From Candidatus Gottesmanbacteria bacterium (GTDB lineage Bacteria; Patescibacteriota; Microgenomatia; 2-02-FULL-39-11), in NCBI GenBank assembly GCA_016195685.1, contig JACPZE010000020.1:21725-85724 (forward strand): a DNA stretch of 64,000 nucleotides. Reading direction: 5' to 3'. The first letter of the stretch is position 1, and each line of letters begins with the position of its first letter. Below the pieces are notes generated by a model. That model searched no databases. It was not told the DNA's origin and saw only the letters and a list, made by a program, of their open reading frames with translations. This document shows, piece after piece, positions 693 through 57,667 of this stretch. A program made the position numbers and the translations under genes.

Positions 693-695
693 AAT

Positions 696-3349: not shown

Positions 3350-3740
3350 TATTGACGGCTAGATCAAAAATTGGTATATTGAATTAAGTTAATAAAAGCG
3401 TTGATGGGGACGAGTAAAACATTTGTGTCTTTCAGAGAAGGGTAATCGGTGAGAAGTCCCAAAGACAATTGTTTGTATCTCCAAGACCCTGGAGCTGCCG
3501 GAAGAAATCAGTATTTACTGAAAGTAAATCCGAGTCGGGTGCGCCCGTAATAGCACTAAAGTGTCACTGTTCCGATTTTATCGGAAATCAAGCACTTGAA
3601 CGAGGAGTAATTTACAAAGTGACACGCATGTTTTGCGTGTTTTTGTTTATTTAATTACTCGAAATGAGGTGGTACCATGGTTCGACTTCGCTCACCACGA
3701 GCTGTCAACCGTCCTTATATTTGGACGGTTTTTTTGTGGA
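3350..3740 (+). ncRNA. long structured 5' leader or small RNA with two tandem intrinsic terminators; type unresolved
   Basis: A ~400-nt noncoding gap. The first hairpin, ACACGC-N7-GCGTGT with a U-tract, lies at 3622-3652. The second, AACCGTCC-N8-GGACGGTT with TTTTTTT, lies at 3707-3737. This is directly upstream of a CDS with a GGAGG ribosome-binding site. The ORF-track ORFs here (3469-3654 and 3677 start) run through terminators. Confidence 0.35.
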
Positions 3741-3748
3741 GGAAAAAT

Positions 3749-21468: not shown

Positions 21469-21560
21469 TTTAATATAAACCCTATTGCTTTTAAATTTTC
21501 ACAACCCAACTTAGCTCAAGGTTCACTTTTTCTTCCATTTCTCCTATACTAGCCTTATCG

Positions 21561-22937
21561 ATGGGAAATATTAAAAAGCTTCTTATCTACCTTTCTATTT
21601 TAATTTTTGGGGGTATTATAGCGTTTGTATCGGCTCCATATCTTCGCCAGTTTCTCTCATCCTCCGGGTTCATACAGGAAAAAGTACTGGTTGCAGGGAC
21701 GGGATCCATGTATCCTACTTTCCCTAAAGGCGAAGGGAAGACGGACGTCTTGAGGGCATCTGAAATTGTCGCATTACCAAAGATGAGGCATTTCCCCTCG
21801 GGTATAACTTTAAACGGATTTAATTTATTCTCATACAATCTGGAGCATGGGGATATCGTCGATTTTGAAAATGTTAAGACAAAAGAAATCACCAGGCAAA
21901 AATATGGTGATGAAGCAGGATTTGTAAAAAGAATTATTGGTCTTCCAGGTGACAGTATTACATTACGCGATGGTTTTGTCATTGTAAACGGCCAAAATTT
22001 GGATGAACCTTATACCGCTAAACCCAGGTCGACGTATGGGGGTGATTTTTTGCCAGATTGTCAAAATATATTAGTTCCACAAGGAAAAATTTTTGTGATG
22101 GGGGATAACCGCAAGGCAAGTCTGGACAGCCGATTTGAATTGGGATTTGTGGATATAAAAAGTATAAAATTTGTCATGCCGGTAGGCGAACAAGGTGATT
22201 ATCGGAAATCATTTCGGGATACGAAAGAAGATAATTCTCTTGCTAATACGGCTACTCTTGACCCAACGGAATTCGTAAAATTACTAAATGAAAAAAGAAA
22301 AGAGAAAAATCTTCCGCCCTTTAAACTCAGTCCTATTCTTTCACTCTCGGGGAAAAGAAGGGGAAATGTGATGATATCAACCAATGATTTTTCTACAGAA
22401 GCAACCAAAAGCGGTGTAACTTTGGAGAAAGCTTTAAAAGAAACTGGGTACAGTAATATAATTTTTGCGGAAATATTCACAAGGGGATATTATGAAGCAA
22501 TAGAACTTTTGGATAACTTTTTGGAATTTCCACAGACAAAAAATATTCTATTTTCCAGTCAGTACCAAGAAATAGGTCTGGCTCCGGTTTTGGGCGAAAT
22601 CAATAACTGTCCGACTCAAGTAGTAGTAGTCCATCTGGGCGGTTATGTGCCGCCCAATTACAAACCGGAGGATATACAGAGCTGGAAGAAACTTATGGAT
22701 AATTTAAATCAGGCTATACCTTCATGGGAGCAACTTCAAAATAACAGTAACGTGGATCAGTCAAAATTAAATCAGTTATTAAATATTCTAAGGATTAGAA
22801 AGGATACGGCGAATAAAATTTATAAAAGGATGAATGCAAACCTGTGGTTATCTGATGAAGAAGAAAAGTTGGTGGCACAAGATAAACAACTGGCAGAAGA
22901 TGCAAATTCAATTGTGGATCAACTGTCTAAGAAATGA
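21561..22937 (+). CDS. lepB: signal peptidase I (S26) fused to a C-terminal CAP/SCP-like domain
   Basis: S26 motifs (GTGSMYPTF, the VKRIIGLPGD lysine box, GDNRKASLDSRF). The C-terminal ~175 aa (from about 22236) resemble a CAP domain (LNEKRKEKNLPPFKLSP...SQYQEIGLA). Confidence 0.75.
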   Translation: MGNIKKLLIYLSILIFGGIIAFVSAPYLRQFLSSSGFIQEKVLVAGTGSMYPTFPKGEGKTDVLRASEIVALPKMRHFPSGITLNGFNLFSYNLEHGDIVDFENVKTKEITRQKYGDEAGFVKRIIGLPGDSITLRDGFVIVNGQNLDEPYTAKPRSTYGGDFLPDCQNILVPQGKIFVMGDNRKASLDSRFELGFVDIKSIKFVMPVGEQGDYRKSFRDTKEDNSLANTATLDPTEFVKLLNEKRKEKNLPPFKLSPILSLSGKRRGNVMISTNDFSTEATKSGVTLEKALKETGYSNIIFAEIFTRGYYEAIELLDNFLEFPQTKNILFSSQYQEIGLAPVLGEINNCPTQVVVVHLGGYVPPNYKPEDIQSWKKLMDNLNQAIPSWEQLQNNSNVDQSKLNQLLNILRIRKDTANKIYKRMNANLWLSDEEEKLVAQDKQLAEDANSIVDQLSKK

Positions 22938-24955
22938 CTAAAATAAAACTCCTGTATAAAATATTGCCTATTTTCTTTATTGCCTCAATTGTAATTGCTT
23001 TATTTGGAAAAAGTCTCATTCCCGCGAAGGGATATATCTTATACGGCGGTGACTTAAATGACCAGTTTTACTATTGGAAATCTTATTATGTACAAAATTT
23101 AAAGCAGGGTATTTTCCCATTTTGGAATCCGTATTCTTTCTCTGGTACTCCTTTTTTGGCTCATCCGTCTACATCTGCCTTTTATCCATTTAATATTATA
23201 TTTTTCATTTTACCCTTCAATACGACATTTTCAGTCTATCTTTTTATCCATATTGTCATGGCAGGGACATTTATGTATTTATTGTGCAAAAAATATGCGG
23301 ATACTTTGTCTTCCCTGGCCGGGGCAATTACTTTTAGTTTATCTGGACTTATGGCGGCCAGAATATATTCCGGACATATAGATATCATTTCTACTCTAGT
23401 ATGGATACCGGCTGTTTTTTGGGCAATGACAAACACATTAGATTCTAAAAATAAAAAATATGTCTTACTTTCGATTTTATTTTTAACTCTTCAGATATTA
23501 GCCGGGTACCAAGCTGTTGTAATTTTTACACTCGAATTTATTTTTATTTATCAGTCAGTTTCTGCAATTTTTGATTATTATAAAAAAATATCTTTATCAA
23601 CAATTACTAAAAAGTTTTTAAAAACAATTTTTATTGTATTAATTTCCTATGGTATATCTGCTATTCAACTTCTACCGACCATGGAATTTGTCCGAAGTTC
23701 GATCAGAGGACAGGGATTACCTTATGAAATGCTTGCCTGGGGATCTTATACCAAGGATTTATTTGGTACTTTTATAAACCCATTTATCTACGGAAACCCA
23801 TTCCCACAAAATTATACTTATAACGGTCCGGGACCGAATTTTTTTGAGCTTTCATACTTCGCTGGAGTTATTCCGCTTTTTATATTTTTATTATTTATCA
23901 TTTACCATCTATATTATTTTATTCGAAAAAGAAAAGTTAAGAAAATATTCTTGGCGCTTATTTTACCGGTACTGTTTTTTTCACTTACTGCCATGGGAAA
24001 TAATTTTCCCATCCATAAGTTCCTTTATCAAATGTTTCCTCCATACAGATTATTCCGCTTCCCATCTCAACATTTGATGATGGTGGTATTTATCATTTCG
24101 CTCACAACAGGAATATTCCTGGGAATATTTAAAAATAAACTTATGAAATTAGTAATTTTATTACTCATAACTCTCGAATTATTCATCTATGATAAGCAAT
24201 TTATCACAACCTCTAAAATTCCCACCGATAATTTTGATCAAAATTTGACCTCAATATTAGAAAAAGATACCCAATTAATCAGACTTTTACCAGATTATTC
24301 GGTAGTTTCACAGGTGAGGAAAGATTGGGATTTTGAGTCGTCGATGTATTATAAAATACAATCGACCAGCGGTTACAATCCGATTTTACTTAATTCTTAT
24401 TATCACTTTATAGATCTTATCAATAAGAAAAATACATCTTCTGTAGCACAATTCAATGTAGAAATTCCACCACCTGACCCAGCTTCAAAAGATATAGATT
24501 TTTTAAATATAAAATACGTCTTGACTAATAAGAATTACGATATGATTTATGGTAAATCTTTGAGTAAATATGCGTTAAAATTAGAAGGAAATAATTACAG
24601 ATTGTATGAGAATAAAGATTTTTTACCCAGATTTTTTCTAGATTGTTCTGGAAGAGACGCAAAAGATGTAGAAGTGGTAGATTACCAAATAAATAACATA
24701 AAGTTAAAAACGAGTTCGAATTGTGATGGAATTTTGTCTTCCAGCGAAGTATATTATCCGGGTTGGAAAGCAACTATTGATAATAATGAAACCCCAATTT
24801 ACAAAAGTAATACAGCTTTCCGGTCTATATTTTTACCAAAAGGGGAACATGATGTTATTTTCTATTACCAACCGACTATTTATTATCTTGGAGGTTTCAT
24901 AACGTTATTAACTTTAGTTTCTTTATTTATAATCATTAGAAAATACTATGAATAG
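22934..24955 (+). CDS. YfhO-family membrane protein (GT-C glycosyltransferase-like)
   Basis: Many TM helices. The C-terminal YYPGWKATIDNNETPIYKSNTAFRSIFLPKGEHDVIFYYQP matches the YfhO family C-terminus. Confidence 0.65.
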   Translation: MTKIKLLYKILPIFFIASIVIALFGKSLIPAKGYILYGGDLNDQFYYWKSYYVQNLKQGIFPFWNPYSFSGTPFLAHPSTSAFYPFNIIFFILPFNTTFSVYLFIHIVMAGTFMYLLCKKYADTLSSLAGAITFSLSGLMAARIYSGHIDIISTLVWIPAVFWAMTNTLDSKNKKYVLLSILFLTLQILAGYQAVVIFTLEFIFIYQSVSAIFDYYKKISLSTITKKFLKTIFIVLISYGISAIQLLPTMEFVRSSIRGQGLPYEMLAWGSYTKDLFGTFINPFIYGNPFPQNYTYNGPGPNFFELSYFAGVIPLFIFLLFIIYHLYYFIRKRKVKKIFLALILPVLFFSLTAMGNNFPIHKFLYQMFPPYRLFRFPSQHLMMVVFIISLTTGIFLGIFKNKLMKLVILLLITLELFIYDKQFITTSKIPTDNFDQNLTSILEKDTQLIRLLPDYSVVSQVRKDWDFESSMYYKIQSTSGYNPILLNSYYHFIDLINKKNTSSVAQFNVEIPPPDPASKDIDFLNIKYVLTNKNYDMIYGKSLSKYALKLEGNNYRLYENKDFLPRFFLDCSGRDAKDVEVVDYQINNIKLKTSSNCDGILSSSEVYYPGWKATIDNNETPIYKSNTAFRSIFLPKGEHDVIFYYQPTIYYLGGFITLLTLVSLFIIIRKYYE

Positions 24956-26573
24956 TAGATATAAAATATTGCTTGGGGTAATACTTACAATTTTTTATTT
25001 AATCTTCCATATTTTCATCATGAACGACTACGGAATTTCATGGGATTTTCACTATCATAATTTTGCAGGATTATACCATCTGGGACAGAAGGTCCCGTCG
25101 ATCGATGATTCCTATTCGATCCCTTTTACTCCTCCTGATCCAAGACTGACTACACTTGATCCTTTTGGGCCCTTTACTCAAATTATCCCTACCTTATCTT
25201 ATTTAATTTTTTATGACCTGCCTGCGCAGGTAGGAAAATTGCCTATCTTGCCTTTTGACAGTGCTTATAATTTACCATCAGTAGTCTTGGGTAGTTTGGG
25301 TATATTGGTTCTTTTTCTTTTTTTGTATGAGGCTATAAATTTTCCTTTGGCTATTTTTTCTTCAGTTTTTCTAGCCTTACTCCCGACACATTTTGGTTAC
25401 CTGCACGATAACATGAAAGACGTGCCGAATGCGTTTGTATTTACTTTATCGGTTTATCTTTTCTGGCGACTTACTAAGCATAAACGATTGCGCGATTTAA
25501 TTTGGGCGATTTTAGCATTTGCCTTTGCTTTTAACGTGAAAATAAATTCCGTAATGATTCCCGTGGTATGCTTAGTTTGGTTTTTATTTAAAGAGAGAAA
25601 GACAATAATTACTGTCATCCCGAATTTATTTCGGAATCTGAGGGGAGCGATGAAGCGTATCCAGAAAGATTATGGATTGGTCATTTTATATTTTATATTA
25701 TCTCCCATTGCGGCACTTTTAATATGGTGGCCTTTTTGGAAAGATCCAATCGGTAAATTATTGGAGCTGCCGTATTTTTATTCTCACAATACTCTGAATA
25801 TGCCTGTATTATTGGATGGAGTAATCTATCATTCAGGCGTGAATATTCCCTGGTTTTATCCCTGGGTATACATATTTATCACAACTCCATTGGGAGTATT
25901 AACTGCATTTTTAATGGGGATTATCATTTCCATCACTAAAATCTTTAAAAAAAATGGTATTTATGCGCTACTTATTATTTGGTTACTAATTCCACTGATG
26001 CGATACTTCAGTCCTAAAGTCTCGGCAATCGACGGTATGCGTCATTTTATGGAAGTGGTTTATCCTCTTTGTGCTTTAGCGGGCGTAGGATTTTACTTTA
26101 TTTATGAAACTCTGGACAAGCTTACAAAAAGTAAAAAAACGGGAAGGATTATTTTCGGATTCTTGCTAATTACTCTAGTATACAATTTAGTGAAATTTCA
26201 CCCTTATCAGACAAGTTTCTATAATGCCGCAATTGGTGGAGTAAAAGGTGCAAATGGAAAATTTGATATAGACTTTTGGGGTGCACCACAAAAGGATGCA
26301 ATTGTTTGGTTAAATAAAAATGCAGAAATAAATTCTTATATAAATGTGGTTATGGCTCAAAGTTCCGCCGCGATGTATGCTCGAACGGATTTTCAAAGTA
26401 AAATCAATGAAAAAGATTGGGAAAATAGCGATTACACTGTGATTCTAAACAAAAAATCATTTTTCGAAGTTTATCCGATACAAAAATACTTATCCAAGAG
26501 TCTTTCGGAGAATAAATTGGTTTACGAAAGAACTATTGATGGTGTACCTCTTTTTTGGGTGATCAAAAATTAA
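24948..26573 (+). CDS. polytopic membrane protein, GT-C (PMT/ArnT-like) candidate
   Basis: About 12 TM helices with a C-terminal soluble region. No diagnostic motif was found by eye. Confidence 0.45.
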   Translation: MNSRYKILLGVILTIFYLIFHIFIMNDYGISWDFHYHNFAGLYHLGQKVPSIDDSYSIPFTPPDPRLTTLDPFGPFTQIIPTLSYLIFYDLPAQVGKLPILPFDSAYNLPSVVLGSLGILVLFLFLYEAINFPLAIFSSVFLALLPTHFGYLHDNMKDVPNAFVFTLSVYLFWRLTKHKRLRDLIWAILAFAFAFNVKINSVMIPVVCLVWFLFKERKTIITVIPNLFRNLRGAMKRIQKDYGLVILYFILSPIAALLIWWPFWKDPIGKLLELPYFYSHNTLNMPVLLDGVIYHSGVNIPWFYPWVYIFITTPLGVLTAFLMGIIISITKIFKKNGIYALLIIWLLIPLMRYFSPKVSAIDGMRHFMEVVYPLCALAGVGFYFIYETLDKLTKSKKTGRIIFGFLLITLVYNLVKFHPYQTSFYNAAIGGVKGANGKFDIDFWGAPQKDAIVWLNKNAEINSYINVVMAQSSAAMYARTDFQSKINEKDWENSDYTVILNKKSFFEVYPIQKYLSKSLSENKLVYERTIDGVPLFWVIKN

Positions 26574-27273
26574 AAACGATCGATAACATAAAACGGAAAT
26601 AATCCACAAGTGTTTTAAAAGAGCTTATTTTACTTTTTCCCCAGATTCGGTAGTGATAAGTGATGGGTATTTCTGCAATATTAAATCCATAACGGTTTGC
26701 ATACAAAATAAATTCCATATATGAAGGATAACCATCGTATTTGAGATTCAATCTTACTTTTTCTGCTACCTCTTTTTTCATAAATCTATAGCCTGAGCTG
26801 ATGTCTTTCACTTTTATCCCCATAATTTGAGTGACAATTTTGTTGGTTAATCGGCTGGCAATTATCTTCCATACTCTTTTTTCATCAAATCTGCCGCCTT
26901 TTATAAATCTTGATCCTATAATCAAATCAGCATAATTTTTTTTCATCATTTGAATAAATCTAGAAAGGTCAATGATATCGTGGTTTAAATCGGCGTCCAT
27001 AGTGAGGATATGCGTGGCTGTTTTATCCAGATATTGGTATCCGACTTTATATGCTTTTCCGATTCCAAGGGGCTTCTCATAATAAATATAATCAAGATAG
27101 GGTTTAGTTTTCTTGAGTTTGGCAAGAAGTTCCCTGCTTCCATCATTTCCTTGCAAGACGAAAAATATTTTAAACACGATTTTTTGCTTTTTGAACTCTT
27201 TCTCAATTTTGCTGATCAGATCATTGAGATTCCCTTTTTCATTGTAAGCTGGTATCAGCACAAAAATTTTCAT
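26563..27273 (-). CDS. GT2 glycosyltransferase (dolichol/undecaprenol-phosphate sugar synthase-like)
   Basis: MKIFVLIPAYNEKGNL...TMDADLNHD, the GT2 pattern. Confidence 0.75.
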   Translation of the reverse strand: MKIFVLIPAYNEKGNLNDLISKIEKEFKKQKIVFKIFFVLQGNDGSRELLAKLKKTKPYLDYIYYEKPLGIGKAYKVGYQYLDKTATHILTMDADLNHDIIDLSRFIQMMKKNYADLIIGSRFIKGGRFDEKRVWKIIASRLTNKIVTQIMGIKVKDISSGYRFMKKEVAEKVRLNLKYDGYPSYMEFILYANRYGFNIAEIPITYHYRIWGKSKISSFKTLVDYFRFMLSIVFNF

Positions 27274-27397
27274 AATAGGTTCACAAGTTGGTAAAAGATA
27301 AGTATACTAATTTTATAACAGAACTTACAGTGTCTGGATTAGATAAATAAGTAAATTTTTGATAAAATAGATATATAATTTCCTCTTTTACTTATTT

Positions 27398-28600
27398 ATG
27401 AATATAGCCTTTATCTCCTATTGGTCCTGCCCATTGACTCGTCTGGGTGTGCTTTCTTCTGGTGGAATGAATGTCTATGTTTTAAATCTTGCCAATAACT
27501 TAGGTACGCTGGGCCATACTGTAGATATTTATACCCATTCGCATCATGAAAACGATGAAAAAATACTGCAAATACACAAAAATGTAAGAATAATTCACTT
27601 TTCCGTTCACACAATAGATCATTACCAAGGTGTAGAATCATTTGCGAATAAAATGCTTGATTTTATGGGAAAAAATTCTTTGCAATATGATCTTTTGCAC
27701 AGTCACTATTTCTACTCCAGTTTGGTAGGACAAATTATAAAAAAAAGTTTGCACATTCCCCTTTTTACTACATTTCACGCATTAGGAATAACGAAAGAAC
27801 TTTATGGCGGGATAAGCGATAAGTTAAGAATCCAAAGTGAAAAGAATATTGTCAACTTCAGTGACGGCATCATTTCTTCTGTGGAATTGGAAAAAAAGGA
27901 ACTCGTCGATAAGTATAAGGCAGATGCCCAAAAAATTTTCGTGGTTGCCCCAGGAGTAAATCATCATGTATTTAAAAAAATTGACAGAAAAAAAGCCAGA
28001 ATGAAAATAGGTATAACAAGTGACGAAAAAATTATTCTTTTTGTAGGAAGGATCGATCCGATCAAGGGAATATCTATCCTTATAAATGCAGTATCAAAAC
28101 TTTCTAAGAAATTCACAGATTTTAAAGATAATTTCAAAGTTCTTTTAATAGGCGGAGACATAGAAAGTAGAACATTTTGGAGAAATCCTGAAGTTATAAA
28201 AATTCAGACTCTCATTGAGCGCTTAGATCTTGCTTGTTGTATAAAGTTTATAGGGAATAGGCCCCATAATGTATTACCATATTATTATAGTGCAAGTGAT
28301 ATAGTAATCATGCCATCCCGCTATGAATCATTTGGGTTGGTTGTATTAGAGGCAATGGCAAGCGGGACCGCGGTTATTGCATCAAAAGTTGGAGGTCTAT
28401 CTTACCTTATAAAAGATAAGGTAAGCGGCCGATTTTTCCGAAGCGGTGATGTAGAAAATCTAGGTGAGGTCATTTGGGAACTGCTCAATGATGATAAACA
28501 AAGAGACAACTTAGGTAAGAAAGCAATAATAGAAAGTCAAAAATATTGCTGGGATTTGCAGGCTGAAAAAATTATTGGATTCTATAAAAAATATTTATGA
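27398..28600 (+). CDS. GT4 glycosyltransferase
   Basis: YESFGLVVLEAMASGTAVIASKVGG, the GT4 signature. Confidence 0.8.
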   Translation: MNIAFISYWSCPLTRLGVLSSGGMNVYVLNLANNLGTLGHTVDIYTHSHHENDEKILQIHKNVRIIHFSVHTIDHYQGVESFANKMLDFMGKNSLQYDLLHSHYFYSSLVGQIIKKSLHIPLFTTFHALGITKELYGGISDKLRIQSEKNIVNFSDGIISSVELEKKELVDKYKADAQKIFVVAPGVNHHVFKKIDRKKARMKIGITSDEKIILFVGRIDPIKGISILINAVSKLSKKFTDFKDNFKVLLIGGDIESRTFWRNPEVIKIQTLIERLDLACCIKFIGNRPHNVLPYYYSASDIVIMPSRYESFGLVVLEAMASGTAVIASKVGGLSYLIKDKVSGRFFRSGDVENLGEVIWELLNDDKQRDNLGKKAIIESQKYCWDLQAEKIIGFYKKYL

Positions 28601-29169
28601 AAAAGACAGTGATCTATTTTCTTCGTCATGGTGAAGTAGAGAATCCCAAAAAAATTATTTATGGAAGACTCCCAGGATTTAATCTGTCTGAAAACGGGAT
28701 AAAAAGGATAAAAGAAGTAGCACAAGAATTGAAAAGTCAAAAAATCGATTATTTATATGCCAGTCCCATGCGAAGAACAAGACAAACAGCAGAAATACTA
28801 AGTCAAGTATTCAGAATAAAAAAGAGGATTAGTCGATATCTTATTGAATCGAAACTTATACATGCAGGATTACCCTTGGATATTTTTAAAAAAGAAATAC
28901 AACCAAAACTTTATGAAGAAAAATATTTAAAACTCGGTCAGGAAAGTCCAGAGTCACAGGCCGATAGGATGTGGCGATTTGTTCAAGTGATGAAAAGTAA
29001 ACATATCGGAAAGACCATACTTGCGGTTTCTCACGGCGATCCGATAGTCATTCTGAAAGCAAAGATTTTGGGAAAGCCTTTCAATTGGCAATTCAAGTTG
29101 GAGAATTATCTTAAACCCGGATATTATCTAATTTTATCCTGCGAAGGAAATACATACAGAATTAAATAA
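28597..29169 (+). CDS. histidine phosphatase (phosphoglycerate mutase family)
   Basis: RHG motif (FLRHGEVENP) and a second His in AVSHGD. Confidence 0.7.
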   Translation: MKKTVIYFLRHGEVENPKKIIYGRLPGFNLSENGIKRIKEVAQELKSQKIDYLYASPMRRTRQTAEILSQVFRIKKRISRYLIESKLIHAGLPLDIFKKEIQPKLYEEKYLKLGQESPESQADRMWRFVQVMKSKHIGKTILAVSHGDPIVILKAKILGKPFNWQFKLENYLKPGYYLILSCEGNTYRIK

Positions 29170-29174
29170 TTTTT

Positions 29175-29813
29175 ATGATGAATAATAAAAAATTCAAATT
29201 CCTTTTCACCAGCTTGGTATTTGGTTGCATTTTTATTTATTTAAGTTTTTTGGTGAATAAAGATATATTCCATAATCTGGATTATGATACCTTGGTTTAT
29301 CTTCAAAAGTCATTTAATCGAATAGTTGATATGCCGTTTTCGATACTCACGCTTTTAGGATCATCGGAATTTATTTTGCCAACAGTCACTTTAATATTTA
29401 CAATATTATTTTTGCGGAAAAAGCACTTGTTTAGCGGGTTATTTCTTATATTTTTGATTTATATTTTTGAGTTGACCGGAAAATTATTCATATATCATCC
29501 CAAACCTCCCATGATATTTAATCGCTATGTCCTTCATATTTTCCTTCCCAGCAGTTTCATAGTCGAAACCAATTTTTCCTATCCTTCCGGTCATATGGCC
29601 AGGATAACTTTTTTGACAGTAATTATTCTGTATTTTATTTTTAAATTTACTAAAAATAAGTTACATAAGAACTTTTTTATATTTCTATCAGTATTTTTTA
29701 TAACGGTTATGTTTATAAGCAGAATATACCTGGCAGAACATTGGTTTACAGATGTTCTGGGAGGATTACTTTTGGGTGTAAGTTTGGGAACTCTGGCTTT
29801 AAGCCTTTGGTAA
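29175..29813 (+). CDS. PAP2-family membrane phosphatase (possible polyprenyl-pyrophosphate phosphatase)
   Basis: PAP2 motifs PSGH (SYPSGHMARI) and SRx5Hx3D (SRIYLAEHWFTDVLGG) on a multi-TM scaffold. Confidence 0.7.
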   Translation: MMNNKKFKFLFTSLVFGCIFIYLSFLVNKDIFHNLDYDTLVYLQKSFNRIVDMPFSILTLLGSSEFILPTVTLIFTILFLRKKHLFSGLFLIFLIYIFELTGKLFIYHPKPPMIFNRYVLHIFLPSSFIVETNFSYPSGHMARITFLTVIILYFIFKFTKNKLHKNFFIFLSVFFITVMFISRIYLAEHWFTDVLGGLLLGVSLGTLALSLW

Positions 29814-30533: not shown

Positions 30534-31931
30534 ATGCACGAACTCATCTCAAAATTACAGGGAAAAAATATCCATATTGTAGGAGTCAGTGGTGCAGAAG
30601 GAAGTAATATTCTCAGATTCCTCGCCAAGCATAAAATTTCGGGTATTACCGCCCACGATTTTTCAAATAAAATTAGTTTGGAAAAAAACTTCAGACTTTG
30701 GCATAAAGGACTAATGCCACAGGAAAGAAATAAACAATACCAACAATTTAAGAATTATTTATCAAATGTAAAGTTAAATTTGGATAAATCATATCTATCT
30801 GACATCCAACAGGCAGATATAGTTTTCGTGCCGCAATCTTGGAGGCTATATAAAATGGAAAATTTGCCTCTTTTTAGTGTAGTCGGTAAAATTCCATTTT
30901 ATTCTTTAACTCGGCTCTATCTTGACTTTGCGCCTGCCAAAATTATTGCAGTGACAGGAACAGTAGGAAAGGGCAGTACAGCGAATATTATTTTCCAATT
31001 ACTAAATGCCAACGGTAAAAAAGCTTACTTTGCCGGGAATGATACTTGGATGGCTCAATTGGGAGATAAATTAGATGAAATGGCTAAAGATGATTTTCTT
31101 GTTTTGGAAATATCACATAGGCAGCTATTGGACGGATTCACCAAAGCTCCATATATGGTAGTGGTAACGAATCTTTATCCAAATCATCTGGATGAGGTGA
31201 GTTGGGAAGAATACATCAATTTAAAATTATCTTTGGTCAGAACACAGGAACAAAGAGGAATATCCATATTGAACTATGATATTCCCCAGTTACGTTTGGA
31301 TGGTAAATTAAAATCGAAAATATTTTATTTCAGCGTAAAAACACCGGAAAAGAATACAAAAAGTATTCAGAATATATATGATAAATTGTTGAATAATAAA
31401 AGTGATCAATATTTATCAAATTTGTTGGCAGGATTAACAGTTTTAGAAATATTAGGACAAACTTTAATCAAAGTACTTCCTCAATTACTAAAGATTAAAC
31501 CTTTACCGGCAAGAATAGATTTAATCGGAAAAATAAATGGAATTAATTTTTATGATGATATAAAAAGTACTACTCCGTGGGCTACTGTCGCTGCAGTAAA
31601 CAAACTTGGGGAAAATACAATCCTAATTTGTGGAGGAAAAACCAAAGGAATAGATTATAACGATTTTGCAAATAATTTGTTGAAGAGAGTAAAGTTTACA
31701 ATAATGATAAAAAGTGAATTAAGTGAGACTTTGGTTAAGTTAATGCCGGAAGGCAGTTTCATCCTCGAGAATGATTTAGCGAAAGCAATAAGTATTGCTT
31801 ATAAAAAAGCTATAGTTTCCGATAATATTTTACTTTCTCCAGGTGCTGGATTTTTTTATAGTGATTTTATCAAAGGAAAGAAGTCTTACCGGAAACTTAT
31901 TACTTCTCTTCTTCCAAAGGAGCAAGTTTGA
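30534..31931 (+). CDS. murD: Mur ligase family protein, MurD-like
   Basis: N-terminal Rossmann-like GxGxxG region (IHIVGVSGAEGSN). Mur ligase P-loop (IIAVTGTVGKGSTANI). Length of 465 aa and a MurD-like C-terminus. No other division/cell-wall (dcw) cluster genes are adjacent. Confidence 0.7.
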   Translation: MHELISKLQGKNIHIVGVSGAEGSNILRFLAKHKISGITAHDFSNKISLEKNFRLWHKGLMPQERNKQYQQFKNYLSNVKLNLDKSYLSDIQQADIVFVPQSWRLYKMENLPLFSVVGKIPFYSLTRLYLDFAPAKIIAVTGTVGKGSTANIIFQLLNANGKKAYFAGNDTWMAQLGDKLDEMAKDDFLVLEISHRQLLDGFTKAPYMVVVTNLYPNHLDEVSWEEYINLKLSLVRTQEQRGISILNYDIPQLRLDGKLKSKIFYFSVKTPEKNTKSIQNIYDKLLNNKSDQYLSNLLAGLTVLEILGQTLIKVLPQLLKIKPLPARIDLIGKINGINFYDDIKSTTPWATVAAVNKLGENTILICGGKTKGIDYNDFANNLLKRVKFTIMIKSELSETLVKLMPEGSFILENDLAKAISIAYKKAIVSDNILLSPGAGFFYSDFIKGKKSYRKLITSLLPKEQV

Positions 31932-32085
31932 GTGGATTGACTGATATAATTTCACATTCTACTCCGCAGGATGGACATTCTACTATTTTCCCGATATTTA
32001 TTCCTGTAGATAATTTTAGTGGAGTATCACATTCCGGGCAAACTGGAGCAAGCGTTGGGTTATTTGGACTGTCATCAGTAGTCAT
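31900..32085 (-). CDS. LysW-like zinc-ribbon protein (amino-group carrier protein-like), antisense and wedged between + strand genes
   Basis: 61-aa ORF. VCPECDTPLKL...GKIVECPSCGVECEIISVNPLKLAPLEEEK matches the LysW/ArgW layout (CPECG..L.L...GE.V.C..CG.ELEV....PL.L.P..EE) with two CxxC pairs. It lacks the canonical terminal EDWGE. Its 3' end overlaps the MurD-like gene's 3' end by 32 bp. Confidence 0.45.
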   Translation of the reverse strand: MTTDDSPNNPTLAPVCPECDTPLKLSTGINIGKIVECPSCGVECEIISVNPLKLAPLEEEK

Positions 32086-32115
32086 ATATAATTATCTAAT
32101 TAAACCATATTTGTT

Positions 32116-32976
32116 ATGATCAGACAAGATTTAATCACATTGGGTGAAGGTAATACTCCGCTTGTTGAAGTAAACGGTATCTATTTCAAATGTGAATTCA
32201 AAAATCCAACCGGATCGCATAAAGATAGGGCATTTGCCCTACAAGTATCTAATATTAAAGAAAAAGGAATAAAAAAAGCAGTAATATCATCTTCCGGCAA
32301 TGCGGCGATTTCTGCAGCTAATTATTGCAAACTGGCAGGTATTGCACTTACTGTTTTCGTTTCACCCCATATCAACAAAAAAAAGCTTCAGATATTAGAA
32401 AATTTAGATTGCGTAGTTATCAAATCTAATAGGCCTGTGAGCGATTCAATAAAATATGCCCAAAAAGGAGAAATATATAATCTGAGACAATCAACTGATA
32501 TAAATGCTGTTATCGGATATGAGTCGATCGCTAGTGAAATCATAGATAGCAAAATATCGCCGGACGCAATTTTTTTACCTGTAAGTAGTGGGACTACTCT
32601 CATAGGTATTGCTAATGGCTTTAAGAATTCAAAATACAAAATACCCGTCCACGCAGTCCAAACAGATCTTGTGCATCCGATTACTGGAATTTTTGATAAA
32701 GATTTTCCTAAGTCAGATGAAAAGAGTATGGCAGATGCAATTGTCGCCAGATACACCCCAAGGGAGGCTGAAGTGGTAAATATGATCAAGCAAACTGGCG
32801 GGTGGGGATGGGTGATCACTAATGAGGAGATGGAAAAGGGTAGAGTATGGTTATACTCTCACGACTTGGATTGTTCTTATGAAGGAGCAGCAACTCTTGC
32901 AGCTTTGTGGAAAGCAACAAAATACGGATACATATATGCCCATCCAGTGTGTATATTAACAGGAAAGTTTTACTAA
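32116..32976 (+). CDS. fold-type II PLP-dependent enzyme (threonine synthase/cysteine synthase/racemase-like), short form
   Basis: N-terminal GEGNTPL and the PLP-lysine motif NPTGSHKDR. Glycine-rich SSGN and SSGTT loops. At 286 aa it is shorter than threonine synthase. Confidence 0.7.
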   Translation: MIRQDLITLGEGNTPLVEVNGIYFKCEFKNPTGSHKDRAFALQVSNIKEKGIKKAVISSSGNAAISAANYCKLAGIALTVFVSPHINKKKLQILENLDCVVIKSNRPVSDSIKYAQKGEIYNLRQSTDINAVIGYESIASEIIDSKISPDAIFLPVSSGTTLIGIANGFKNSKYKIPVHAVQTDLVHPITGIFDKDFPKSDEKSMADAIVARYTPREAEVVNMIKQTGGWGWVITNEEMEKGRVWLYSHDLDCSYEGAATLAALWKATKYGYIYAHPVCILTGKFY

Positions 32977-32980
32977 AAAT

Positions 32981-34297
32981 ATGACTGACTGGAAGAAATA
33001 TTTTTCTGACGATAATATTTTTTTTGTGACTCCGGATGTAAAAAGAGGTCTTGGGTTCACCGGAATCCTGTCCCAATATCATATTATTTGTACAGACCTT
33101 GATCCGATAATCCCTGCGTTAAGAATTCAGGGGGCAAAGATATTTTGTCTGGAAGAGGAAGGAAGTGTTGATGTCAGTGAGATGCGTAATTCCGGTAAAT
33201 TACTGGAAAACTTACGGGTTTTGGAATATATAAAAAATAATTCCAAGGGTGCTCCGAAAGTTATGTATTTTAAACCATCGCTGAAGATCGATTCACTAGT
33301 AAAGCTTCATGGATTTACTCCGATCGGTAACAATACCGCATTAAACGAATTATTTGAAGATAAAGTCAGTTTCGCCCAAATTGCTAAGAATATTTTTCCT
33401 GATTATTTATTGCCTAGTATTTCGGGAATTTTAGGAGAACTTAATTATCCAGATTTATATGGAAAGTTGAGTTCTCCGCTAGTATTGCAGTTTGGGCATG
33501 GATGGGCCGGGAAAACTACGTTTTTTATAAACGGTGAAGAAGAATTTGAAATATTATCGCAAAAATTTCCCTATACAAAAGTAAAAATAAGCAAATTCAT
33601 AGAGGGATTTACCGTATTAAATAATTGTTGTTTATATCAAGGCCAAATATATATAAGTAGTCCAGCAGTACAGATAGATGGAATAGAAGAACTTGGAAGT
33701 AAACCAGGAGCGACCTGCGGCAGACAATGGCCGGCAAAATTTATTACAAATGCTCAAGTATCCCAAATCGAAGTCATTTCACGAAATTTAGGGAAACTGA
33801 TGAACGAAAAAGGCTTCAGAGGATTTTTGGGAATTGATTTTCTGATAGAAGAGAAGACCGGAAAAATTTATTTATCTGAAGTTAACGCCAGAATGACCGC
33901 ATCATCAGCTTTTTATACACTACTAGAAATAGGTTCAGGTAGTATTCCTCTTTTGGCCTATCATATGGCTGAATTTCTGGGAAAATCTATAAAGGATAAA
34001 TTTGAAGAGAATAATAATTTAGTTGGTTCTCAAGTGATTATGCGAAGCGGAAGAAGTTTAACAAATGTCGATAGTCATTTATTCGGAGTATTTAAATATG
34101 AAAATAATCGGACAAAGTTTATAAGAGACGAATATTATCCTAATAAACTCAGGGACGGTGAATATATTTTTATGGGAAAAAGATTAAAAGAAGGAAATTC
34201 TACAGATGAATTCGCCAGAATTGAGACAAAATACGAGATTTTAGAAAAGCCTAGGAAATTTAATAAACAATTCAAAAGGATAATCAATAATTATTAA
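32981..34297 (+). CDS. ATP-grasp superfamily carboxylate-amine ligase
   Basis: C-terminal ATP-grasp core (GFRGFLGIDFLIEEKTGKIYLSEVNARMTAS). 438 aa with a ~150-aa N-terminal extension. Confidence 0.65.
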   Translation: MTDWKKYFSDDNIFFVTPDVKRGLGFTGILSQYHIICTDLDPIIPALRIQGAKIFCLEEEGSVDVSEMRNSGKLLENLRVLEYIKNNSKGAPKVMYFKPSLKIDSLVKLHGFTPIGNNTALNELFEDKVSFAQIAKNIFPDYLLPSISGILGELNYPDLYGKLSSPLVLQFGHGWAGKTTFFINGEEEFEILSQKFPYTKVKISKFIEGFTVLNNCCLYQGQIYISSPAVQIDGIEELGSKPGATCGRQWPAKFITNAQVSQIEVISRNLGKLMNEKGFRGFLGIDFLIEEKTGKIYLSEVNARMTASSAFYTLLEIGSGSIPLLAYHMAEFLGKSIKDKFEENNNLVGSQVIMRSGRSLTNVDSHLFGVFKYENNRTKFIRDEYYPNKLRDGEYIFMGKRLKEGNSTDEFARIETKYEILEKPRKFNKQFKRIINNY

Positions 34298-34299
34298 AA

Positions 34300-35574
34300 T
34301 TATTTTTTGATTAAACCTCCGATCATAAGTACTACTGCAATGGTCATAAAGACAAAAGTTATCCAAGCGATAATTTTACTTACCTTATTTGTTCTATGAA
34401 GGCCTACAATTCTTTTATCGTCAGCTAACCTAATGATTATAGCAATTAAAGGAACAGCGATTATGCCATTAAGTATTGCGCTGTAATAAAGAGCTTTTAT
34501 GGCGTTAATACCTAAGAGATTCATAAGGGCGCCAATCGTTGTAGCGAAACCGATAGTTGCGTAAAATGCCTTTGCCTCCGTAAATTTTTTCGCTAGTCCT
34601 TCTTTAAAACCAAAACTTTCGGCAAAGGCATAAGCGGCGCTCCCCGCGAGGACGGGTACAGACTGTAAACCAATACCGATGATACCGAAAGTAAAAAGTA
34701 GATAAGCAGAATCTCCGGCTAAGGGTCGCAATGATAACGCTACTTGTTGTGGAGTCTCGATATCATGGATACCGTTTCGGAATAGTGTTGCACTTGTAGT
34801 AAGAAGAATGGCAAAAGCTATCAGATTGGAAAAAATCATCCCGGCTGCGGTATCTTTTTGCATGTGATGAATCTCTTCTTTTAAAATAGTCGGAGACTCT
34901 TCAAATTCCGTGATTTTTCCTTCTTTTATTTCTTCTTCTACTTCCTGGGATGCCTGCCAAAAGAAAAGATACGGAGATATGGTAGTACCCAAGAATCCAA
35001 CCAAGATCATGACGTACTTGATATTGAATTCGATATGAGGGATAAAAGTATATTTGATAACTGATAACCAGTCTTGTTTTACTATCAATGCAGTTATTCC
35101 GTAACCTAATAAGGTAAGCCCCATCCATTTAAGGTAACGAGAATATTTATCGTACGAAACAAATATTTCTAAAAATATAGTAAAAACGGTTACGAAAATA
35201 AGCCAAAAAAAGAATGGCAGTCTAAGTACCATCTGCATAGAAGCAGCCATGATTCCGAGATCCGCTCCAATATTTATAGTATTGGCAATGATAAGAAGCG
35301 ATAAGGCAAAAATAAGAAGTTTCTTTGAATAATATTTTCTGATACTGCCGGCAAGTCCCATACCAGATACCATGCCTATTCTGCCGCACATTTCTTGGAC
35401 TGAGATCATCATCGGCGTAAGAAATAAAGTAAGCCAATTCAATGAATATCCAAATTGAGCTCCGGCTATAGAGTAAGTGGCGACACCAGAAGGATCATCG
35501 TCTGCAGCTCCTGTGACAAAACCAGGACCAAGTCTAGCAAATTTACTGGCGATGAGCCTGATTATCTTTCTCAT
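34300..35574 (-). CDS. mntH: NRAMP-family divalent metal (Mn2+/Fe2+) transporter
   Basis: [20 protein letters not shown] is the Nramp DPGN-type motif. About 11 TM helices. Confidence 0.85.
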
Positions 35575-57631: not shown

Positions 57632-57667
57632 GATGGCAAGAAGCGGATACTGTTCGCTGTATTTTAT

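Follow-up and report, generated by a model that had tools for sequence, protein, structure and literature searches.

A LysW-fold zinc-ribbon protein ending in lysine belongs to a conserved murD-associated gene module and is a candidate protein carrier in peptidoglycan-precursor synthesis

What does a small zinc-ribbon ORF do on the opposite strand between the genes of a MurD-type ligase and a PLP enzyme? The question is raised by a locus of a Candidatus Gottesmanbacteria bacterium, within the 64,000-nucleotide stretch of DNA that we analyzed (hereafter, the window), and it has several parts: whether the ORF is a gene, whether its product is the LysW of lysine biosynthesis, and what such a protein could carry among cell-wall genes. 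The features of the locus are listed in Table 1. The translation of the ORF, called the EEK carrier below, is MTTDDSPNNPTLAPVCPECDTPLKLSTGINIGKIVECPSCGVECEIISVNPLKLAPLEEEK, and an identical protein is found in NCBI as MBI3379746.1. An earlier note, written from the DNA alone, had described a 32-nt overlap with the 3' end of the MurD-like gene and 30 nt before the start of the PLP gene, and our coordinates agree with this geometry. Its description of the gene as antisense is right as to the opposite strand, but the gene is not truly antisense, as just 32 nt overlap with a sense gene.

Table 1. Coordinates of the features around the zinc-ribbon gene, in positions of the window
Feature	Positions	Strand	Remarks
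NlpC/P60-like cysteine hydrolase, cytoplasmic, ~238 aa	29816..30532	+	ORF opens with TTG at 29741; ATG at 29816 is the likely start
MurD-type Mur ligase, 465 aa	30534..31931	+	TIGR01087 161.8 bits vs cut-off 211.95
EEK-type LysW-like zinc-ribbon protein	31900..32085	-	61 aa, ATG start, two CxxC pairs, tail ...APLEEEK-COOH
Convergent overlap of the carrier tail codons (APLEEEK and stop) with the last MurD codons	31900..31931	.	32 nt
Spacer between the divergent starts of the carrier and PLP-enzyme genes	32086..32115	.	30 nt
Fold-type-II PLP enzyme, ThrC-like, 286 aa	32116..32976	+	PF00291 168.5 bits; without the ThrC phosphate-site motif
ATP-grasp ligase of the PurK/biotin carboxylase/PylC/PGM1/L-amino-acid-ligase branch, 438 aa	32981..34297	+

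A frame that is short, runs opposite to all of its neighbors, has no Shine-Dalgarno sequence and was skipped by gene callers in some relatives might be open merely by chance, with the real genes on either side of it. However, it is not the shadow of an opposite-strand gene because it occupies its own space between two genes, bar the 32 nt. No Shine-Dalgarno sequence was found before the EEK carrier or before any other local gene, and since the neighboring genes lack one as well, its absence is uninformative. On the plus strand, a promoter-like TGGACT-16-TATAAT places its second hexamer, TATAAT, in the spacer, ending at 32092; it is a consensus match only, and such matches in the region are no more numerous than in shuffles. 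Scanning the surroundings of the gene for promoters and terminators likewise gave no excess of sites over shuffles, an uninformative result. What speaks against a chance frame is the protein itself, which has more than 1000 homologues and a Pfam match at E=3.9e-11. The four Cys residues and the tail are kept in homologues at 43-84% identity, the dN/dS values of two orthologue pairs are 0.29 and 0.26, and the gene is retained across phyla at 33-78% GC. The spurious reading, to which we give a negligible probability, is effectively refuted, and by these comparisons the ORF truly encodes a LysW-fold carrier-type protein, the second in this genome.

The earlier note had recognized a LysW-like zinc ribbon, and in both profile and fold searches the likeness to LysW went well past chance. 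The EEK carrier scores 42.8 bits with Pfam PF21344 (Zn_ribbon_LysW) over residues 16-59, where the cut-off is 27, and the two CxxC pairs, C16/C19 and C37/C40, are invariant among its homologues. In the PDB, the homologue profile matches Thermus thermophilus LysW (3wwl, E=2.7e-8) and Thermococcus kodakarensis LysW (5k2m_E, 3.7e-7), and the five best Foldseek matches of the AF2 model, whose pLDDT is only 75.6, are all LysW chains (probability 0.99-1.00, 36-40% identity). The profile search that the note had proposed as a check gave a divided answer, because the protein scores above the PF21344 cut-off but below those of TIGR01206 (39.3 bits vs 53.2) and NF041070 (30.7 bits vs 75).

Could the protein then simply serve the alpha-aminoadipate lysine (or arginine) pathway at the window start as its amino-group carrier? 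It has the LysW domain, PGAP labels it "lysine biosynthesis protein LysW" and JGI also names it LysW, and lysY, lysZ and lysJ lie in the same window. The earlier note had mentioned argC/B/D-like genes there in connection with a carrier system, but these genes are lysY/lysZ/lysJ, part of a canonical lysW-lysX-lysY-lysZ-lysJ operon that spans the window start. The lysW of this operon (tail EEDWGE) and its RimK-type lysX were found in the fetched DNA that directly precedes the window (locus L015). The EEK carrier is therefore excluded as the carrier for these genes and is a second paralogue outside the lysine pathway. The two are 30 kb apart, the sub-threshold TIGR01206 and NF041070 scores point the same way, and the protein lacks the EDWGE tail, the terminal Glu and the LysX/ArgX and LysZ/Y/J/K-type neighbors of a lysine-operon LysW, while its cell-wall context is conserved in other phyla (see below). 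We consider an ordinary LysW highly improbable.

The atypical ...EEEK tail, which the earlier note had pointed out, is a true departure from EDWGE and a trait of a subfamily. PLEEEK forms the C-terminal end in 37 of 37 close homologues. To describe the wider group we propose the term EEK-type for proteins that have one LysW ribbon, carry 21-22 residues as an arm beyond the last Cys and end in E-[EQTG]-K; the window protein has the ribbon, the arm and the C-terminus, and its gene is divergent to a PLP gene followed by an ATP-grasp gene. Across 140 EEK-type proteins, 21-22 residues separate the last Cys from the C-terminus, compared with 26-31 in canonical LysW. The uniformity of the tail could have been an artefact of a word-index search, and this was checked by an HMM search of 1.84 billion representatives without a word index, in which the EEK tails persist and diversify: among its best 150 matches, EEK-type tails were found in 30 of the 69 small ones and canonical DWGE in 11. 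The variants PLEEEK, LIEEEK, ELVEEK and FDEEEK all combine an acidic run with a C-terminal Lys, which is near-universal in the subfamily, and LIEEEK genes were also recovered by tblastn in loci fetched through the ATP-grasp ligase. Judged from these alignments, the EEK-type proteins are a large separate LysW-fold subfamily with an acidic tail of fixed length and a C-terminal Lys. No published description of it was found in the literature on LysW, amino-group carrier proteins, peptidoglycan, Patescibacteria or MurD/D-glutamate. The suggestion in the earlier note of an undescribed carrier-protein system looks right.

To place the gene in its context, we compared 21 loci from Gottesmanbacteria, other Microgenomates including Shapirobacteria-like ones, and Dormibacteria-like lineages of 71-78% GC. 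In 21 of 21, the genes of the carrier, the PLP enzyme and the ATP-grasp ligase are adjacent, with the carrier divergent to the PLP gene and the ATP-grasp gene following the latter, at enzyme identities down to 26-33% and GC contents from 33% to 78%. The small ORF, which the earlier note had proposed to look for in the syntenic loci of relatives, is present in all of them, and so is the ATP-grasp gene that it had put forward as the partner. The link is reciprocal, as every locus fetched via ATP-grasp homologues has the carrier gene even where it was left uncalled. From called gene coordinates, the spacers between the carrier and the PLP gene are elsewhere as short as 3-12 nt (3 in L023, 11 in L019, 12 in L020 and L022). 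MurD orthologues adjoin the carrier in Gottesmanbacteria and the high-GC lineages, and the 3' ends overlap by 26-50 nt in 14 of the 16 MurD-linked loci (35 nt in the 71-78% GC lineages). Five Microgenomates loci have the module beside mraY or ftsW within the dcw cluster, and in L016, L018 and L021 it sits directly between mraY and ftsW-murG, the slot of murD (mraY-X-ftsW). No MurD was found in the 15 kb of fetched DNA at the dcw-embedded loci, where only position ties the module to the MurD step. MurD linkage or dcw embedding is conserved across phyla, and the MurD neighbor is not incidental. The synteny within Gottesmanbacteria is largely shared ancestry, and independent support comes from the two other lineage groups; as a general explanation, such ancestry is countered by the Shapirobacteria-like, other Microgenomates and 71-78% GC loci. 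In summary, the EEK carrier, a ThrC-like PLP enzyme and a PurK/PylC/PGM1-like ATP-grasp ligase, usually with an NlpC/P60-type hydrolase, form a conserved module that is either physically tied to murD or occupies the position of murD within the dcw cluster. The EEK carrier probably acts, as carrier or adaptor, in a peptidoglycan-precursor module instead of in lysine biosynthesis.

Between carrier and adaptor, the conserved arrangement itself has to be weighed. A zinc ribbon that stays unloaded might be a small binding partner, or a mimic of the stem peptide, and regulate or scaffold MurD, the PLP enzyme or the ATP-grasp ligase; its ...Glu-Lys-COOH resembles the end of a UDP-MurNAc-tripeptide, and the overlap with murD could add antisense control. 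The conservation across phyla of the opposite strand and of the murD 3' overlap, the very short spacer to the PLP gene and, by inference, the likeness of the tail to a Lys-ended stem peptide are consistent with such a role. On the other hand, every characterised LysW-fold protein among the PDB entries is a covalent carrier, a strictly conserved end residue on a flexible arm of fixed length is typical of a reactive handle, and a ligase and a hydrolase in one module suit a cycle of loading and release. We regard a non-carrier adaptor or regulator as very unlikely and continue with a loaded carrier.

The enzymes of the module narrow down what a loaded carrier could do. The PLP enzyme resembles threonine synthases more than racemases: its nearest PDB match is ThrC (2zsj, 3e-14), followed by an Asp racemase (5ybw, 2e-8) and a Ser racemase, and it also matches SbnA and cysteine synthases. 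We rejected it as a threonine synthase, because it falls below every NCBIfam ThrC cut-off (the best models give 134/129/121 bits against 301/358/421, and TIGR00260 gives 57.7 against 167) and has lost the phosphate-site motif. The T. thermophilus ThrC stretch NSVNPHRLEGQK aligns to QSTDINAVIGYE in the PLP enzyme, with Arg160 replaced by Ala; we take this stretch to be the ThrC phosphate-site motif, N-S-x-N-P-x-R-x-E-G-Q-K, with residue roles from the T. thermophilus ThrC structures. The ATP-grasp ligase counts PylC and peptide ligases among its structural neighbors, while LysX and RimK are distant and are not its closest relatives in sequence and structure. A PDB sequence search with this ligase returned PGM1 alone (E=0.043), which is uninformative by itself. 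PylC acylates the epsilon-amine of a Lys, but the likeness to PylC does not fix the reaction of the ligase, because PurK and biotin carboxylase score equally.

The MurD-type ligase finds MurD structures as its best PDB matches (4buc, 1e-26; 3lk7, 4e-24) and keeps the Lys of SK(A/S)T and the LLSPG motif; before the catalytic His it has Asn, where MurD has Asp and MurD2 has Glu. From the alignment, the SK(A/S)T Lys can be read as the equivalent of Escherichia coli K348, a mark of the D-Glu-specific MurD (for the roles of MurD residues including K348, see PMC8788868). The hydrolase was assigned to NlpC/P60 from weak Pfam matches, from its catalytic motifs and because L022 has a bona fide NLPC_P60 gene. 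Its own match to PF00877 is weak and below the cut-off (E=0.0045), 10 of 13 orthologues match (best E 3.3e-5), and DCSG and GGxH, with the catalytic Cys and His, are invariant among the orthologues. A PDB profile search with the alignment gave noise and marginal Spr/MepS matches only. Orthologues belong to the module in Microgenomates, and the high-GC locus L022 has its Pfam-level NLPC_P60 gene at the same position, while none was seen in the Dormibacteria locus L019 or in L023. Members of the NlpC/P60 family typically cut gamma-D-Glu-diamino-acid bonds.

Taken together, these components suggest a cycle in which the working handle would be the terminal Lys of the EEK carrier. The ATP-grasp ligase would first convert a side-chain carboxylate into an acyl-phosphate, with L-Glu as the most plausible amino acid, and then pass the acyl group on to the epsilon-amine of this Lys, in chemistry of the PylC or D-Asp-ligase type. 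Because the alpha-amino acid end would stay free, the PLP enzyme could act on the tethered residue, and we propose that it epimerises the alpha carbon to give D-Glu. For the MurD step, the NlpC/P60-type enzyme may release D-Glu as a gamma-D-glutamyl-Lys hydrolase, or MurD may ligate the residue before release; the net effect would be a one-way, ATP-driven supply, on a protein carrier, of the residue at position 2 of the peptidoglycan stem peptide. That a cycle on the terminal Lys serves the MurD step is a tentative reading, to which we give somewhat less than an even chance, and its attachment site, substrate and type of PLP reaction are all inferred. Its core, a substrate attached to the terminal Lys and worked on by the PLP enzyme, we hold with the same restrained confidence. 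A full protein-carrier step in cytoplasmic peptidoglycan-precursor synthesis, with an amino acid held on Lys, loaded by the ATP-grasp ligase, converted by the ThrC-derived PLP enzyme and consumed or released by MurD and the NlpC/P60 enzyme, is possible but rather doubtful, and that the product is specifically D-Glu is, if anything, slightly more so. A D-Glu cycle is not parsimonious, because simple racemisation needs neither a carrier nor ATP. On its side, fold-type-II Asp and Ser racemases are among the PDB matches of the PLP enzyme.

The Lys could alternatively be a cap. As in ubiquitin-like precursors, the NlpC/P60-like peptidase would trim it to expose ...EEE, and the ATP-grasp ligase would join a substrate by its amino group to the terminal Glu in the manner of LysX, so that the carrier shields this group while an amino acid for peptidoglycan is built. 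Such a carrier would retain the LysW fold and acidic tail, would use the hydrolase gene within the module, and after trimming would end in Glu like canonical LysW. However, caps normally vary, whereas here the Lys is near-universal and the tail length fixed at 21-22 residues; the ATP-grasp ligase is structurally distant from LysX and RimK; and no kinase, reductase or aminotransferase genes were found beside the EEK carrier in the examined loci. Furthermore, the sole modifying enzyme of the module is the PLP enzyme, which requires a free alpha-amino group, and a substrate tethered through its nitrogen could therefore form no aldimine unless it were a diamino acid. A capped LysW seems unlikely to us.

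A different use of the Lys would be analogous to CysO-thiocarboxylate and CysM, and it draws on the likeness of the PLP enzyme to threonine synthases, its nearest matches, and to SbnA and the cysteine synthases. A PLP-bound aminoacrylate or vinylglycine, made from phospho- or acetyl-Ser/homoserine, might be attacked by the epsilon-amine of the terminal Lys, giving a diamino-dicarboxylic acid of the lysinoalanine type for the stem peptide, which the hydrolase would release before the ATP-grasp ligase adds Lys again to ...EEE. Such a scheme would make sense of the ligase and hydrolase as well as of the terminal Lys, the encoding of that Lys in the gene would be explained if the ribosome pre-loads the carrier, and CysO/CysM offers a precedent for a carrier paired with a fold-type-II PLP enzyme. 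Against it, the stretch that we take to bind phosphate in ThrC is not conserved, the conserved neighbor is MurD (position 2) and not MurE (position 3), and we know of no peptidoglycan with a lysinoalanine-type residue. We therefore consider Lys as a nucleophile quite unlikely and retain the acylated terminal Lys as the tentative reading.

To our knowledge, LysW-type carriers have been described solely from lysine and arginine biosynthesis and a few Streptomyces secondary pathways, and the substrate is always on the C-terminal Glu. The EEK subfamily has the opposite terminal chemistry (Lys vs Glu), a new enzyme set and an association with murD or the dcw cluster across phyla. If the proposed cycle is true, carrier-protein biochemistry would reach cell-wall precursor synthesis, a much-studied and heavily drug-targeted bacterial pathway, and there would be a third route, driven by ATP, to D-Glu, or to a non-standard position-2 residue, in many Microgenomates (CPR) and Dormibacteria-like bacteria. 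The module is a candidate for how some of these uncultivated lineages obtain or handle the D-Glu position of peptidoglycan. Hundreds of EEK genes have been named automatically "lysine biosynthesis protein LysW" or left uncalled, which misleads reconstructions of lysine biosynthesis in CPR.

Among known systems, LysW/ArgW (3wwl; 5k2m_E; S. tokodaii 3vpb_E) share with the EEK carrier a small C4 zinc ribbon, a flexible acidic C-terminal arm and a gene that adjoins an ATP-grasp ligase, and the solved LysWs are 36-40% identical to it. In contrast, the EEK tail is 5-9 residues shorter and ends in ...EEK instead of ...EDWGE, and where LysW has a terminal Glu whose gamma-carboxyl carries the substrate, the EEK carrier has Lys. 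The EEK partner ligase is outside the LysX/RimK branch, the carrier gene lacks LysZ/Y/J/K-type neighbors and lies by murD or in the dcw cluster instead of among lysine or arginine genes, and the genome also encodes a canonical LysW. The Streptomyces AmCP systems of secondary metabolism reportedly use a LysW-type carrier outside lysine biosynthesis. As far as is known, these keep LysX/LysZ/LysY-type enzymes and attachment to the C-terminal Glu. AmCP usage is also described in PMC11726168. The EEK carrier is likewise a LysW-fold paralogue recruited beyond lysine and arginine synthesis and coexisting with, or independent of, a primary LysW, but unlike AmCP it has a different terminal residue and is accompanied by a fold-type-II PLP enzyme, a PylC/PGM1-like ligase, an NlpC/P60 hydrolase and MurD.

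The chemistry proposed for the EEK carrier, joining an amino-acid carboxylate to a Lys epsilon-NH2, is that of PylC and of the D-aspartate ligase Asl(fm), ATP-grasp ligases which acylate this amine. However, their acceptor is free lysine or UDP-MurNAc-pentapeptide, whereas the acceptor proposed here is a protein C-terminus, and sequence identity to the module ATP-grasp ligase is ~10%. CysO-CysM is a case where a small carrier protein brings its C-terminus as a reactant into a fold-type-II PLP active site, and the tubulin TTL/vasohibin cycle uses an ATP-grasp ligase to add, and a papain-like cysteine peptidase to remove, the residue that follows an acidic ...EE tail. Both are conceptual analogues only, the families being unrelated (a beta-grasp GG-thiocarboxylate carrier and a eukaryotic cytoskeletal protein, respectively). 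The functional analogue of our proposal would be MurD2/MurL, an ATP-consuming, one-way conversion of L- to D-Glu in bacteria without murI and dat, such as Xanthomonas (PMC8788868), in which D-Glu likewise enters at stem position 2 in an ATP-driven, one-way manner beside a MurD-type ligase. No sequence relationship was found between MurD2/MurL and the module, whose MurD, set against the MurD2/MurL route, keeps the Lys that we read as equivalent to K348, a mark of the D-Glu-specific MurD.

The carrier ORF, which encodes a LysW-like zinc-ribbon protein, meets the Mur ligase gene tail to tail, its last 32 nt overlapping that gene's 3' end, and its start lies 30 nt from that of the PLP-enzyme gene; the coordinates, overlap and spacer given in the earlier note were all correct. 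Because the ORF, apart from these 32 nt, occupies its own space between two genes, it is not a mirror image of a conserved opposite-strand gene. The reading of the product as a LysW-like zinc ribbon was borne out as well: PF21344 (Zn_ribbon_LysW) matches residues 16-59 with 42.8 bits (cut-off 27, E=3.9e-11, Pfam), the best solved proteins for the homologue profile are the LysW of T. thermophilus (3wwl, E=2.7e-8) and of T. kodakarensis (5k2m_E), and the five best Foldseek matches of the AlphaFold model (pLDDT 75.6) are LysW chains (prob 0.99-1.00, 36-40% identity). The four cysteines are kept in 36 homologues of 43-84% identity, dN/dS is 0.29 and 0.26 for two orthologue pairs, and the identical protein is deposited as MBI3379746.1. 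The groundwater source runs SRR12113409, SRR12113414 and SRR12113415 contain an identical gene. We found no Shine-Dalgarno sequence before the ORF or before any gene of the neighbourhood, so its absence here is uninformative. Judged from its sequence, the carrier ORF is a real LysW-fold gene.

Coordinates of the module genes and other features (window positions unless a relative's stretch, L004-L024, is named)
Feature	Position	Strand	Remarks
LysW-like carrier ORF	31900..32085	-	ATG start, 61 codons, product MTTDDSPNNPTLAPVCPECDTPLKLSTGINIGKIVECPSCGVECEIISVNPLKLAPLEEEK
MurD-like Mur ligase	30534..31931	+	465 aa; 3' end overlapped by carrier ORF
PLP enzyme	32116..32976	+	286 aa; divergent neighbour of carrier ORF
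ATP-grasp ligase	32981..34297	+	438 aa; next after PLP-enzyme gene
lysY/argC	39-692		window start falls inside gene
lysW-lysX-lysY-lysZ-lysJ	L015:1176-4096 and window 39-2661		
Homocitrate-synthase-like gene	3677-5098		weak match
Class-I LysRS	5156-7456		766 aa
Envelope-glycosylation run	20239-29813		upstream of module
Nramp gene	34300-35574		opposite strand to RF2
RF2 (prfB), longest ORF	from 35477		GTG start
791-aa ORF	57668-60043	+	
Long ORF	57664-58587	-	overlapped by 791-aa ORF
Long ORF	59047-59685	-	overlapped by 791-aa ORF
GC-skew drop	58001-60000		falls to -0.31
Uncalled EEK-type gene	L016:5959-6111	-	
Uncalled EEK-type gene	L018:5775-5951	-	
MurD orthologue in two pieces	L006:7137-8404		
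HicA/HicB pair	L024:8896-9397	-	toxin-antitoxin
ATE_C-like gene	L021:11195-11800	-	weak match

The argCBD-like genes that the earlier note mentioned at the window start are of lysY/lysZ/lysJ type and have a LysW and a LysX-type ligase of their own. The lysY/argC gene is followed by a kinase gene that passes NF010659, the equivalog for "[LysW]-aminoadipate kinase" (294 bits vs 223), with a LysJ/ArgD-type aminotransferase gene next to it; on the same contig directly upstream of the window (L015), a 56-aa LysW with the tail ...EEDWGE is encoded, with a 283-aa RimK/LysX-type ligase directly after it and lysY and lysZ next. The genome therefore owns a complete canonical carrier/ligase pair. The carrier studied here falls short of the equivalog cut-offs for LysW (TIGR01206, 39.3 vs 53.2; NF041070, 30.7 vs 75), its gene is 30 kb from the canonical lys operon, and, unlike LysW, whose tail is EDWGE and whose terminal Glu carries the substrate, it lacks EDWGE and ends in Lys. 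Together, the genome's own lysW-lysX, the scores, the tail and the distance rule out that the carrier is the lysine-pathway LysW. In this CPR genome (Gottesmanbacteria), lysW(EEDWGE)-lysX-lysY-lysZ-lysJ make up a complete operon of the LysW-mediated, alpha-aminoadipate type. Downstream of it lie the homocitrate-synthase-like gene and an archaeal-type LysRS gene; the LysRS model covers only the first ~520 residues of the latter's product, leaving a ~245-aa C-terminal extension.

The atypical ...EEEK ending, already remarked on from the sequence, recurs widely. The C-terminal hexapeptide PLEEEK was invariant in 37/37 close homologues in a word-indexed search. Since a word index might bias this result, the carrier profile was rerun without an index on 1.84 billion representatives; its best 150 hits include 69 small proteins with a single ribbon. 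Thirty of these 69 end in E-[EQTG]-K (PLEEEK, L/I-IEEEK, ELIEEK/ELVEEK, FDEEEK/FEEEEK and, rarely, ELIETK or VIQEEK) and 11 in the canonical ...DWGE. Searching again with a diverse alignment as query gave 1021 hits. From the last Cys to the C-terminus, 140 EEK-type proteins have 21-22 residues and canonical LysW has 26-31; a flexible arm of constant length with a near-invariant end residue is as expected for a reactive handle. The protein might instead act as a non-covalent adaptor or mimic, or the terminal Lys might be a cap, trimmed off to leave a LysW-like ...EEE end. This Lys is the one feature that sets the subfamily apart from LysW, which makes its epsilon-amine the likeliest attachment point. 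The top index-free HMM hits were proteins of 115-185 aa (P0158, P0159, P0165, P0170-P0173, P0311, P0313 and P0334) that have LysW-like zinc ribbons in tandem, two or three each, and basic tails rich in K/R; they appear to form a further branch of the LysW-fold superfamily, as yet uncharacterised. Gene finders had left the EEK-type gene uncalled in two public contigs (L016 and L018), where only tblastn and ORF scanning revealed it; the subfamily is probably under-annotated.

To place the carrier in its genomic setting, we compared 21 independent loci: 13 of Gottesmanbacteria type (the window, L004-L014 and L017), five embedded in division/cell-wall (dcw) clusters (L016, L018, L021, L023 and L024) and three on contigs of 71-78% GC. 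Carrier, PLP-enzyme and ATP-grasp genes are adjacent in 21/21, in agreement with the proposal that the neighbouring ATP-grasp gene is the carrier's partner. Among genomes that are complete or nearly so, the module occurs for example in JACPKY010000002.1 (a Gottesmanbacteria contig of 1.12 Mb), LCFP01000001.1 and Dormibacteria GCA_050734425.1. All 13 Gottesmanbacteria-type loci, with protein identities of ~40-60%, share the order GT4, His-phosphatase, PAP2, NlpC/P60-like, MurD, carrier on the opposite strand, PLP enzyme, ATP-grasp. L016 (Shapirobacteria-type) and L018, reached via distant ATP-grasp homologues, likewise have the carrier gene at this place on the opposite strand, and its product ends in LIEEEK. 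In these two and L021, the module sits directly between mraY and ftsW-murG, the slot normally occupied by murD; in L023 it follows mraY, the contig ending within the ATP-grasp gene, and in L024 it precedes ftsW, with several unrelated genes, the HicAB pair among them, between it and mraY. No MurD was found within the fetched stretches of the five dcw-embedded loci, and no further dcw genes within the window. The ATE_C-like (arginyl-tRNA-protein-transferase C-terminal domain) gene in the L021 cluster is flanked by Mur ligases, murE/murF by position. On the 71-78% GC contigs (L019, named Dormibacteria, L020 and L022), MurD and carrier genes converge with a 35-nt 3' overlap, followed by PLP enzyme and ATP-grasp, at only 25-33% enzyme identity to the window proteins; in L022, a Pfam-level NLPC_P60 gene directly precedes MurD as well, giving the same five-gene arrangement as the window. 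Of 16 MurD-linked loci, 14 show a MurD-carrier 3' overlap of 26-50 nt, and across the 21 loci the divergent carrier-PLP spacer can shrink to 3-12 nt.

Several observations accompany these loci. The envelope-glycosylation run comprises GT4, an S26-family signal peptidase bearing a long extension, YfhO-like, PMT_2 and GT2, then an MshA-like GT4 (275 bits, under cut-off), histidine phosphatase and PAP2; these last three keep their synteny with the module in every Gottesmanbacteria locus. For Gottesmanbacteria GW2011_GWA2_43_14 (L006), tblastn recovered the MurD orthologue as two separate pieces (residues 1-346 and 414-465 of the query), which suggests a frameshift, pseudogene or assembly error. 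Four MAG records titled 'uncultured Gammaproteobacteria' (L004, L007, L010 and L012) show Gottesmanbacteria-type synteny and ~50% protein identity to the window, and protein P0259, named 'Candidatus Micrarchaeia archaeon', lies on a 77.5% GC contig (L020) with MurD, DnaJ and pyrimidine biosynthesis genes (aspartate carbamoyltransferase, dihydroorotase); these labels are probably wrong. Elsewhere in the window, the longest RF2 ORF overlaps the start of the Nramp gene by ~100 nt; its homologues align only from ~residue 63, so the real prfB start is probably near 35663. The 791-aa ORF spans the stretch where GC skew falls to -0.31.

The window Mur ligase is MurD-like (best solved relatives MurD 4buc, 1e-26, and 3lk7) and keeps an SK(A/S)T lysine, which we read as the equivalent of K348, the residue separating D-Glu-specific MurD from L-Glu-specific MurD2 (PMC8788868). 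The PLP enzyme, of fold type II and under all ThrC cut-offs, is nearest to threonine synthases (2zsj, 3e-14), followed among solved relatives by Asp racemase 5ybw (2e-8) and Ser racemases; its motifs NPTGSxKxR, SS(S/T)GN and LRxS are invariant across phyla. The T. thermophilus ThrC stretch N-S-V-N-P-H-R-L-E-G-Q-K, which we take to be the phosphate-site motif, is replaced by QSTDINAVIGYE in this enzyme. The structural neighbours of the ATP-grasp protein are biotin carboxylase (24.7), a Streptomyces ATP-grasp peptide ligase (8ynd, 24.7), lysine-bound PylC (23.9), PGM1 (23.5), L-amino-acid ligase (23.4) and BesA (23.3), then LysX/ArgX (17.7 and 16.7) and RimK (15.7); the fold search does not fix its chemistry. 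In the NlpC/P60-like protein, DCSG and GGxH are invariant, PF00877 matched 10/13 orthologues, only below cut-off, and no signal peptide was seen on reading the sequence.

ATP-grasp enzymes join a carboxylate to an amine, and the NlpC/P60 family cleaves gamma-D-Glu-diamino-acid bonds. An acidic amino acid tethered by its side-chain carboxylate would leave its alpha-amino acid end free, exactly as the PLP enzyme needs; an N-tethered, LysW-style substrate would make aldimine formation impossible. The conserved tie to MurD and the cleavage specificity of the NlpC/P60 family point to glutamate as the substrate. In the cycle we propose, the ATP-grasp enzyme would load L-Glu on Lys61, the PLP enzyme would epimerise the bound Glu, MurD would use the epimerised Glu and the NlpC/P60-like hydrolase would perform the release. 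The PLP enzyme is nearer ThrC than racemases, which speaks against a D-Glu cycle, and the Lys epsilon-amine could alternatively be the nucleophile in a ThrC/CysM/SbnA-type replacement building a diamino acid. An NlpC/P60 gene was not seen in every locus examined, which also counts against the proposed cycle.

We consider it likely that the EEK-type protein is a carrier or adaptor in a peptidoglycan-precursor module. A substrate bound to the terminal Lys and processed by the PLP enzyme is a tentative proposal, and a product that is specifically D-Glu is rather unlikely. The fold is known, since databases already name EEK-type proteins LysW; in full-text literature searching, no account turned up of a LysW-like protein with an EEK tail, nor of cell-wall synthesis using a LysW-type carrier, and there is a realistic chance that the pathway served is new. 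If true, the carrier cycle would be a one-way, ATP-driven supply of D-Glu. MurD2/MurL, the alternative route of Xanthomonas, converts L- to D-Glu in one direction and at the cost of ATP in bacteria that lack murI (PMC8788868); it is unrelated to the module and serves as a precedent for such a conversion.
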